A stretch of DNA of 64,000 nt from a virus (Duplodnaviria; Caudoviricetes), in IMG/VR virus record IMGVR_UViG_3300021375_000006. The stretch is one strand, 5' to 3'. The notes beneath the pieces are model-generated. The model searched no databases, was not told where the DNA came from, and was given only the letters and a program-made list of their open reading frames with translations. Positions 6,130-8,489 of this stretch are shown piece after piece (positions within the stretch are counted from its first letter, which is position 1; each line of letters starts with the position of its first letter). The translations under genes and the position numbers were made by a program.

Positions 6130-6660
6130 TTACTTGTCTATTTTTTTGGTTTCATCAGGTATTACTTCACCACCTACTGCCTTTGGATCTTGCATCCAAG
6201 CAATATATTGGTCAATCATTCTTGATAGAGCTTCTGGTTTTTCATCTTTCTTAAATTTTACTTTAATAGATGACATACCCCCTTCGCCCTGTTTATGAAT
6301 ACAAGGTGCTCCGTGATCTACTTTAATAGATGCTATATTATGTTCGTAATTCTTTTTTCTAAATAGACCTAATAGATCTTTTTTAATATCAGATACTTCT
6401 TTTGGATCGTCGCCAAATTGTAGTCTTGCAGAAAAGTCAATCTCTAATTCTGATAGCCCAATAGAGCCGTGGTCTGCAAGAATAAAGAGTGGTACAACCA
6501 TCTCTTTTTCACCAACTTTAAATGTTTTAGTGATAGGGCTTCCATCGTCGTTAAAGTAGTTACGAATTGCATTGATGTGTTGCCTCTCAGATATACCCTG
6601 AGCAACCATTGCTGCTTCTAATAGCCCACCAATTAATTCTTCGACATTTAGTCTTGCCAT
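6130..6660 (-). CDS. DUF2589-like protein (paralogue A)
   Basis: LNVEELIGGLLEAAMVAQ...VPLFILAD...LSELEIDFS...IKVKFK-DEKPEALSRM. Confidence 0.7.
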   Translation of the reverse strand: MARLNVEELIGGLLEAAMVAQGISERQHINAIRNYFNDDGSPITKTFKVGEKEMVVPLFILADHGSIGLSELEIDFSARLQFGDDPKEVSDIKKDLLGLFRKKNYEHNIASIKVDHGAPCIHKQGEGGMSSIKVKFKKDEKPEALSRMIDQYIAWMQDPKAVGGEVIPDETKKIDK

Positions 6661-6682
6661 GTTTATCTAACTTAAATTATTA

Positions 6683-6711
6683 ATTATACCTTAATTATCC
6701 AAAATGTTTCA
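6683..6711 (-). promoter_or_regulatory. middle-type promoter TGAAAC-N17-TATAAT
   Basis: One of about 10 copies of GAAAC-N17-TATAA in the window. Confidence 0.6.
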
Positions 6712-6742
6712 TTGATAAATATAACAACTAATATTAATTTCC

Positions 6743-7549
6743 ATGGACAAAAAAGTGAGTTTTATTTGTACATCATATCGTAGATATAGATGTGTACAAA
6801 GAATTATTAAACAGTATCTACTACAAGACTATCCCAATAAAGAATTAGTCATATTAAATACCGACCCTGAATATTTATTCACCTTAGATTCTAGCCTAAA
6901 AGATAAAAACATCATAGTGGTTAATAATCATGTTGATTATGCAAAAGGTGAATTTTATACAAACAGGGGTGATATTTGTAGAGATGCAGTCGATCATGCA
7001 ACTGGTGATTATTTCATGCTAGCAGACGATGATGATATTTACTTGCCATGGCATATTCGACAAGCTGTAGATGGTATCAATAGAAATGGATTAGATTCAT
7101 GGAAACCTGAAAGAAGCTTTTTTAAAAGAAGTGACAATAGTTTAGAAACTGCTAGGAATACTATGGAAGCTTCTATAATAGTTAAAATGCAACGTATTAG
7201 ACATATTGGTTTTAGATCAGATGCAACTGGATATGAAGGTCTTAGCTGGTATACACAACTTAGAGGTGAAGGTCAGTTAAATGAGCATGAAAAATATTAC
7301 ATTCCATCGTATTGTTTTAACTGGGGAGCTGATCCATTTGCTGGACATAAACAATCTGGTGATATTGATAATCCTAATAACTTTGAGAATCATAAAAGAA
7401 ACTCTACAGATATTTCAAGTGAGCCTTTAACTCCTTGTACAGATGTTATTGTAAATGAATTATACAGTGATCTTTACGATTATTTAAAAAAACATCAAGA
7501 CCAGTACGACCCAGAACTTTGGCAAAAATACGTTGCCAAATACATTTAA
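6743..7549 (+). CDS. glycosyltransferase family 2
   Basis: VSFICTSYRR...QDYPNKELVILN...GDYFMLADDDDIYLPWHI. Preceded by GATAAATA at 6714. Confidence 0.85.
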   Translation: MDKKVSFICTSYRRYRCVQRIIKQYLLQDYPNKELVILNTDPEYLFTLDSSLKDKNIIVVNNHVDYAKGEFYTNRGDICRDAVDHATGDYFMLADDDDIYLPWHIRQAVDGINRNGLDSWKPERSFFKRSDNSLETARNTMEASIIVKMQRIRHIGFRSDATGYEGLSWYTQLRGEGQLNEHEKYYIPSYCFNWGADPFAGHKQSGDIDNPNNFENHKRNSTDISSEPLTPCTDVIVNELYSDLYDYLKKHQDQYDPELWQKYVAKYI

Positions 7550-7551
7550 CT

Positions 7552-7576
7552 AAAAAAGCCATCCGAAGATGGCTTT
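7552..7576. terminator. bidirectional intrinsic terminator
   Basis: aaaaaagccatc-cgaa-gatggcttt between convergent genes. Confidence 0.8.
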
Positions 7577-7607
7577 AATACTTTTGTATAAACTTAGTTC
7601 TTACTGC

Positions 7608-8195
7608 TTATTCGCCGCCTTTGTCTTTTGGTGGAGTAACACTTGGGTCAATCATACCGATTAACGCATCAGATAATTTTAACATACCTTCAGTTGGAGG
7701 TAGTTGCTCAGCGTGTACGTTTACTGTGTACTTTGCAGAGTTATCTGTTTTTCTAGTGTTCTCTTTATGAGTTGCTACTTTACCAGACATTGATGCTGAA
7801 TATTTCATACCGAACCAACCACCTGATGCAGAAACAGAAACGTCAGTCTCAGTATCTGTAGATGAAGTTGTTTGGTTTGAAGTTTGTACTTCCATGTCGA
7901 AAGTAATGTCAGCAGTTTTAACAGCTAAAGCAGGTAGTGGAACTAATGGTAACATTGGTACTTTTGCGTAATGTGTAACCCATGATTGCTCACCTGAGTT
8001 AGGGTCGGTCATCACTTTGTTAATTTCAATATCAAGTTCTCTTGTCTTTCCTTTACCCTGAAAAGCAACGTCCTTAATATATCTCCAAGTTACCTCGTTT
8101 AGTTTTGCTTGTCCTTTCGCCATACCGACTAGAGGAGAAACGATTAGGTCTTCGATTGGAAGTCCTTTAAATTGATCTGCTATTGCGTTTGCCAT
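7608..8195 (-). CDS. DUF2589-like protein (paralogue B)
   Basis: QFKGLPIEDLIVSPL...AKGQAKL...VPMLPLVPLPALAVKTADITFDMEV...AKYTVNVHAEQLPPTEGM. GATATATA at 8231-8238 upstream. Confidence 0.8.
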   Translation of the reverse strand: MANAIADQFKGLPIEDLIVSPLVGMAKGQAKLNEVTWRYIKDVAFQGKGKTRELDIEINKVMTDPNSGEQSWVTHYAKVPMLPLVPLPALAVKTADITFDMEVQTSNQTTSSTDTETDVSVSASGGWFGMKYSASMSGKVATHKENTRKTDNSAKYTVNVHAEQLPPTEGMLKLSDALIGMIDPSVTPPKDKGGE

Positions 8196-8264
8196 GTTTT
8201 AAAAATTTAGTTTGATTAAGTTATACATAGTATATATCAGGCATAATATTAAAATATATTACAC

Positions 8265-8489
8265 TTATATTAACTTGTTCTTGTGGTCACCGAACGTTGC
8301 AATGTCCTTATATTCTGCTTTAATATCTTCTATATTTCTGAAGGCTGCAGATACTTGCAGCTTCACATCTTCTGGTACATCGAACTTCATTACAGCTCTA
8401 CAGTGTGGACATTGAGCAACTGGATGTTGCATTAAAAACAGTAGGTCTACTCCTAACTGTTGTTTGCAAGATGGGCATGGCATCGGCAT
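8265..8489 (-). CDS. zinc-ribbon protein
   Basis: CPSC...CPHC. Confidence 0.7.
   Translation of the reverse strand: MPMPCPSCKQQLGVDLLFLMQHPVAQCPHCRAVMKFDVPEDVKLQVSAAFRNIEDIKAEYKDIATFGDHKNKLI

Follow-up and report, generated by a model that had tools for sequence, protein, structure and literature searches.

We describe a set of three small genes, here called Z, B and A, in a 64,000-nucleotide stretch of phage DNA (IMG/VR virus record IMGVR_UViG_3300021375_000006, the whole of which is referred to as the window). B and A encode a long and a short member of the Pfam family DUF2589; Z encodes a small zinc-ribbon protein and is the obligate third member of the module. We tentatively propose that the trio forms a soluble lysis module, different from holins, which breaches the cell envelope, a reading that in our judgement falls somewhat short of probable. 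The evidence consists of the linkage of the three genes, a hairpin pattern found throughout the family of B, the wall hydrolase genes that recur nearby in phages as well as in cells, and, in one phage lineage, a peptidoglycan-binding domain fused into the loop of A. Lysis or release cassettes are a known kind of system; what is undescribed is the family of its components, their fold and the trio as such.

The Z-B-A module

The elements of the module in the window are the following, listed from Z to A.

8265-8489, minus strand: Z, zinc-ribbon protein of 74 amino acids, with CPxC, 17 residues, CPxC, and a C-terminal helix-like tail
7608-8195, minus strand: B, long DUF2589 paralogue of 195 amino acids (PF11655, 105.5 bits, model positions 1-152)
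7758-7886, minus strand: Ser/Thr-rich linker and amphipathic hairpin pattern of B, residues 104-146, with a GGWFG tip
6130-6660, minus strand: A, short DUF2589 paralogue of 176 amino acids (PF11655, 55.7 bits, model positions 3-151)
6277-6414, minus strand: variable loop of A, residues 83-128, with a conserved cationic amphipathic stretch in which S90, K93, L97 and F100 are invariant

An earlier note on this DNA, made from the sequence alone, had recognized two divergent DUF2589 paralogues in the same orientation, 176 and 195 amino acids long, with a zinc-ribbon gene upstream, and was correct on each of these points. The open reading frames (ORFs) are real, and both DUF2589 products score above the gathering threshold of PF11655 (23 bits, for a model of 154 positions) over most of the model. 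No similarity between A and B is detected by BLASTP; when the two families are compared by hhalign, they match with a probability of 96.3% (E 1.5e-9, 155 columns, 16% identity), so that A and B are genuine paralogues of great age. The four cysteines of Z are invariant across 39 distinct sequences, and only weak zinc-ribbon matches are found for it in Pfam.

To define the extent of the module, ORFs were called in 87 related phage loci and searched with hidden Markov models for A, B and Z. All three genes are present, on one strand, wherever the contig had not ended, with few truncated exceptions. Their order is Z-B-A, B-A-Z or, once, A-Z-B, all of which are cyclic permutations of a single order; in four loci (L001-L004), the small ORF following the DUF2589 pair is a clear homologue of the window Z. 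Since the three genes stay linked through rearrangements, there is good reason to think that they function together. The finding of cyclic orders only, when L087 is set against the other loci, suggests tandem duplication followed by loss, rather than random shuffling.

None of the three proteins contains a transmembrane (TM) helix, evaluated as a 19-residue window with a mean Kyte-Doolittle hydropathy of at least 1.6, nor a signal peptide, a hydrophobic N-terminus or a lipobox. The anchor of a spanin is thus missing from A, B and Z, as is the feature taken to mark a holin, at least one TM helix in a small protein.

Conserved segments of B and A

The Ser/Thr-rich stretch to which the earlier note had drawn attention, described there as an alternating hairpin with a GGWFG tip, corresponds to residues 109-142 of B, and the description holds for the whole family. 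In an alignment of B with 66 homologues (A1, 27-91% identity), the column-mean hydropathy alternates with a period of two at residues 113-123 and 130-140. The tip between these two arms (residues 124-132) is composed of 25% Gly and 26% Phe/Trp/Tyr, as compared with 6% and 5% in the whole protein, and the preceding residues 104-112 are about 50% Ser/Thr. Both the alternation and the Gly/aromatic tip are retained down to 27-40% identity, and the most conserved motif of the B family, TRxTDxSAKY, lies on the return side of the hairpin. Since the pattern is conserved across A1, the hairpin is a property of the family and not a peculiarity of the window gene. An amphipathic hairpin with alternating polar and apolar residues, the hallmark looked for in beta-pore-forming toxins (beta-PFTs), is accordingly present in the B pattern.

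The same note held that A carries a shorter insert at the equivalent place. The two segments are instead similar in size, about 46 residues in A against 48 in B, and differ in kind: A features a cationic amphipathic helix-like stretch, without a Ser/Thr hairpin.

The AlphaFold2 (AF2) monomer model of B has a mean pLDDT of 72.6 and contains two helices and four strands (H14-44, E53-63, E70-80, E90-108, E147-164 and H170-182), amphipathic only, the first two strands making up a beta-hairpin and the other two being long; the Ser/Thr-rich hairpin (residues 111-146) has a pLDDT below 50, as expected for a segment which becomes ordered only upon assembly. The model of A, with a mean pLDDT of 48, is too poor for fold searching. 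Prediction of the complex of B and A, based on alignments A1 and A3, gave a score of 0.16 (mark 0.32), which speaks neither for nor against binding.

Searching the PDB with the B model by Foldseek yielded no match at E 0.001 or below, the best having an E of 0.22, and neither a beta-PFT nor a tube protein was matched. Similarly, VIA-align against 48,161 PDB chains found no Z of 5 or more, the maximum being 4.5, and searches of the AFDB clusters, BFVD and the ESM Atlas returned DUF2589 proteins only, followed by rows at the level of noise, in which FliF and secretin domains appear with TM scores of 0.27-0.32. The lack of a match to a beta-PFT fold is not an exclusion, because the hairpin itself is of low confidence in the model. 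An atlas feature search found nothing.

Wall hydrolases near the phage module

The ORFs neighbouring the phage loci were clustered, and representatives were scanned with Pfam and PHROGs. Endolysin genes of three unrelated types occur near the trio and share its strand. In L076, L079 and L080 the gene immediately upstream of Z encodes a GH19 enzyme (phrog_181, E 3e-71); in L032 and L035 a gene for a GH24 enzyme (Phage_lysozyme, Pfam E 2.5e-40; phrog_7) is separated from Z, on its upstream side, by a single small gene. The third type, matching phrog_3000 and the C-terminal part of the endolysin phrog_33083, was identified in eleven loci. In one of these, L072, the endolysin gene abuts Z and is preceded by an 82-amino-acid, two-TM, holin-like gene; in this and related loci, a two-TM holin-like gene is followed by the endolysin gene, then by Z-B-A, and then by a gene encoding a TM segment and a coiled coil. 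Adjacency to an endolysin, considered as a mark of holins, is seen in L076, L079, L080, L032, L035 and L072, and not in the window.

Grouping B at 90% identity resolved the phages into 13 lineages, five of which have an endolysin gene on the same strand within 6 kb; in three of the 13 the two are adjacent. For genomes of about 200-500 kb, the number expected by chance is well below one lineage in 13. Small membrane proteins (clusters c7, c8, c11, c12, c43 and c77) and proteins with a signal peptide also recur beside the trio, differing from one lineage to another.

A peptidoglycan-binding insertion in A

In one lineage, with genomes of about 270 kb (L017-L022, L024 and L046), A contains an insertion of about 70 residues, located exactly in the variable loop and directly after the cationic amphipathic stretch. 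In L017, L018 and L046 the insert is recognized as a PG_binding_1 domain (PF01471), with 30-33 bits against a Pfam threshold of 23. The same architecture is shared by 23 protein clusters, 235-237 amino acids long and 73-97% identical to the query, from contigs of up to 612 kb, for which precomputed annotation reports PF11655+PF01471. An insertion kept through such divergence is functional, and implies that the loop of A meets peptidoglycan. To our knowledge, a PG_binding_1 insertion within an A-type DUF2589 protein has not been noted before; at the level of sequence, it is the most direct evidence for a putative role at the envelope.

A C-terminal extension of A in L073, in which a peptidoglycan-binding motif seemed recognizable by eye, had no Pfam match and was not counted.

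Cellular relatives

One genome per species was scanned for B-type genes, resulting in 380 cellular loci, from many phyla, with about 35-43% identity. The cellular cassettes combine two DUF2589 genes, one short and one long, with a partner of about 90 amino acids and often a third paralogue; a LuxR-type response regulator is also present, its place being taken in Vibrio by a Mor-type activator. Z is absent from the cassettes surveyed. In 45 of 80 cellular loci, the B-type gene has a GH19, a GH108+PG_binding_3 or a PG_binding_1 gene no more than about 3 kb away (Pfam; tblastn count), and the products of these neighbours are signal-less.

In Vibrionaceae (L097, L098, L112 and L114), including chromosome II of Aliivibrio fischeri ES114, the DUF2589 pair lies beside a gene of the Mor family, the type of the late activator of phage Mu; the A. 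fischeri ES114 locus offers a tractable model. A cassette is present in strains of Xanthomonas as well. Some cellular B-type proteins (P0264 and P0288) carry a C-terminal extension of about 200 residues, rich in Lys, Glu and Ala, which is coiled-coil-like and has no Pfam match.

Distribution of the family

More than 1000 homologues were found for B and several hundred for A. The nearest large group of B proteins, at about 65-75% identity, is found on metagenomic contigs whose length reaches about 520-610 kb, and 241 IMG/VR viral contigs, up to 483 kb long, encode B. Sequence searches with A and B found no match in PHROGs, PADLOC or NCBIfam, and those with B alone none among PDB chains, or among INPHARED phage records by tblastn. 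The nearest record, a 33-kb fragment (G001), is without a DUF2589 member.

In the literature searched, DUF2589 receives only two mentions, both incidental, and the accessions PF11655 and IPR024510 none. For the DUF2589 cluster AF0414-AF0417 of Archaeoglobus fulgidus, only up-regulation on lactate has been reported (PMC3949148). This cluster resembles the genes described here in belonging to the same family, in which clusters of several paralogues are the rule and no function is assigned; the cellular forms differ in having the partner of about 90 amino acids and extra paralogues instead of Z, the phage form being a fixed set of Z, B and A.

Two homologues were found in unexpected settings. P0025, 71% identical to B, is recorded from a contig whose 104 Mb greatly exceed the size of any phage or bacterial genome, and may reflect contamination of a eukaryotic assembly or insertion into one. 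A contig binned as a metagenome-assembled genome of Gemmatimonadota (L088) carries a phage-type B-A-Z trio at 62% identity, and is probably a mis-binned phage contig.

Genomic context in the window

The window comes from a large T4-like myovirus, and among its products are a tail sheath, tail tube, large terminase, portal, prohead protease, head-closure protein and DNA end protector, as well as a clamp loader, an SbcC-like nuclease, a ribonucleotide reductase and a DNA polymerase. The blocks of head and tail genes are found at 20-47 kb, and the Z-B-A trio lies outside them. Further features are located around or near the trio.

2607-4442, plus strand: protein of 611 amino acids sorted by the type IX secretion system (T9SS), with a signal-peptide-like N-terminus and a CHU_C sorting domain (59.7 bits)
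6712-6683, minus strand: promoter-like match upstream of A
6743-7549, plus strand: GT2 glycosyltransferase (PF00535, 30 bits), antisense between B and A
7555-7576, bidirectional: terminator-like hairpin with a 9-bp stem, 4 GC pairs and a T-run on the minus strand, between the convergent B and GT2 genes
8643-8795, minus strand: single-pass membrane miniprotein of 50 amino acids (cluster c8), hydrophobic segment at residues 22-50, upstream of Z

Since an antisense GT2 gene and a terminator hairpin follow B, Z-B on the one hand and A with GT25 and the genes beyond it on the other are separate transcription units in the window phage. The GT2 gene occupies this site in the window and in the closely related L005-L010, being absent from it in all other loci, and in the slightly more distant L011-L013 B directly adjoins A; for this reason GT2 was rejected as a member of the module. 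The picture of a pair drawn by the earlier note was accurate as to the two paralogues, and overlooked both Z as the obligate third member and the gene which splits the pair here. The c8 miniprotein is a recurrent upstream neighbour of the trio, found in 15 loci, among them L001 and L017, which are distant, and is only a candidate member.

Upstream of Z, on the minus strand, are also a PspC-domain-like membrane miniprotein of 55 amino acids (8800-8967) and two Cys-rich miniproteins of 46 and 41 amino acids (8503-8643 and 8980-9105). A PspC gene precedes the trio in L001 too, where a GT2 gene directly follows Z. A cluster of sugar-modifying genes lies around the trio (4968-7549), encoding a cytidylyltransferase (heptose-1-P adenylyltransferase-like, phrog_7878), GT25 and GT2, and probably modifies the envelope or lipopolysaccharide. 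The window trio is found amid genes related to the envelope, namely glycosyltransferases, small membrane proteins and the T9SS-sorted protein.

A phage-encoded protein with a type IX sorting domain points to a Bacteroidota host, and the clade carrying Z-B-A most likely consists of large T4-like phages with Bacteroidota as hosts. Relatives of this protein (cluster c5) are found a few genes from the trio in 16 other phage loci; their recurrence argues that these phages export proteins of their own through the T9SS of the host.

Farther from the trio, five tRNA genes (Pro, Asp, Arg, Leu and Ser) lie on the minus strand at 10075-11243 and 19304-19389, four of them clustered. The same strand carries genes for an MGS-like domain protein (9671-10060), an IMPDH/GMP-reductase-like protein (11350-12390) and a sigma-70-family factor (12453-13049), assigned from precomputed Pfam annotation of near-identical relatives.

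Discussion

The reading that we tentatively favour may be outlined as follows. B and A would be made as soluble cytoplasmic proteins and would co-assemble, with Z as a putative zinc-ribbon factor for assembly or control. Once assembled, the Gly/aromatic-tipped hairpin of B and the cationic amphipathic loop of A would engage a membrane, possibly by insertion, the likely target being a membrane of the host envelope. Signal-less endolysins could then reach the wall, or rupture of the envelope could be completed. Among the functions offered by the earlier note, that of a lysis accessory gains from the endolysin context and from the PG_binding_1 insert, while the proposed ring, pore or tube draws no support from a hairpin with such a low pLDDT and from searches in which no solved fold was matched.

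Several observations weigh against a lysis module. Eight of the 13 phage lineages have no recognized endolysin within 6 kb. In the window phage itself no endolysin adjoins the trio; none was found among the approximately 30 window ORFs scanned, and the three endolysin types have no homologue in the 64-kb window. A holin-like two-TM gene (c11-c20) accompanies the endolysin in some lineages, and the trio therefore need not be the hole-former. DUF2589 members are present in archaea, which are without peptidoglycan. Fold searches with B yield no pore-former, holin, spanin or tube. Finally, B is 63-90% conserved across these phages, far above what is usual for lysis proteins, and such conservation would also fit a structural assembly.

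Like the components of phage lysis cassettes and of type 10 secretion, the domesticated form of these cassettes, in which a holin and a peptidoglycan hydrolase jointly release cargo, the three genes are small and non-enzymatic, lie near signal-less GH19, GH24 and GH108 muramidases and have small membrane proteins alongside. Unlike them, A, B and Z are devoid of TM helix, lipobox and signal peptide, are far better conserved than holins and spanins, and have an unmatched fold. The amphipathic, Ser/Thr-rich, alternating hairpin of B, with its aromatic tip and low confidence in the monomer model, recalls aerolysin and ETX-MTX2 proteins, beta-PFTs of the alpha-haemolysin type and gasdermins, and DUF2589 proteins would act from the cytoplasmic side as bacterial gasdermins do. 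The DUF2589 pair, however, has neither detected fold similarity to beta-PFTs nor a secretion signal, and lacks the protease-activation partner of gasdermins; neither group has a counterpart to a composition of two paralogues and a zinc ribbon.

A wider proposition, which we regard as doubtful, is that DUF2589 pairs act in phages and cells as soluble perforators working on the membrane from inside, the long and the short protein forming a hetero-oligomer which inserts a beta-hairpin barrel, without any TM holin. The barrel would lie in the cytoplasmic membrane and release signal-less wall hydrolases or, in cells, toxins, while the zinc-ribbon protein would act as a gate in the phage clade.

The trio could alternatively replace spanins, acting after holin and endolysin, reaching the periplasm through the holin holes and disrupting the outer membrane from inside by means of the hairpin. 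In L072 and related loci it occupies the slot which spanins have in lambda-type cassettes, a peptidoglycan-binding domain inserted in A implies that the protein is found in the periplasm, and beta-barrels are native to outer membranes. DUF2589, however, is also present in archaea and in bacteria which lack an outer membrane, neither a lipobox nor a TM anchor is seen in A, B or Z, and their release into the periplasm is putative; we consider this role unlikely.

A role confined to regulation is, in our estimate, improbable as well. According to this explanation the trio would be a wall-associated partner of the endolysin devoid of pore activity, a scaffold, chaperone or timer binding endolysin or holin, with Z as the sensor. 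It would account for the endolysin or muramidase neighbourhood in phages and cells and for the solubility of all three proteins, a zinc ribbon being a typical small binding or regulatory module. The window phage is moreover T4-like, and T4-like phages are a group known for lysis inhibition, where antiholins and the T4 proteins RI and RIII offer a comparison of role. A cytoplasmic regulator, on the other hand, would have no need of the amphipathic, aromatic-tipped hairpin of B or of the cationic loop of A, and the peptidoglycan-binding insert implies access to the wall. In addition, a recognizable holin is often missing from the cellular cassettes, where gene calling was crude.

High conservation across phages whose neighbouring genes differ is a point in favour of a large, strongly constrained assembly unrelated to lysis, either a virion or intracellular structure, or a device for envelope remodelling or superinfection exclusion tied to the glycosyltransferase cluster. 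The trio of the window, like that of L001, has GT2, GT25 and cytidylyltransferase genes and not endolysins as neighbours, which would agree with it. FliF and secretin domains, which share ring-building motifs, also resemble B in having an alpha/beta core and a long protruding hairpin; this weak similarity in shape is at noise level (Foldseek E 0.2, VIA Z no higher than 4.5, TM scores as given above) and serves as a lead only. No PHROG or structural protein was matched, the trio is outside the head and tail blocks, and both the endolysin association and the peptidoglycan-binding insert would be left unexplained, so that we assign this possibility a low likelihood. A toxin, defence or counter-defence module, damaging membranes independently of phage release, is very unlikely: although the cassettes of cells are found on islands which have regulators of their own, of the LuxR response-regulator or the Mor activator type, PADLOC gave no match, and in a clade of lytic phages the trio belongs to the syntenic core and not to a variable island.

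Little is known of the lysis genes in Bacteroidota phages and in many jumbo phages, where holins and spanins often escape identification. Should the proposed lysis module prove true, a soluble trio travelling with signal-less endolysins in phages, with relatives in bacteria and possibly archaea, would represent a new class of envelope-breaching components, and a function would be provided for a Pfam family which has thousands of members and essentially no literature.

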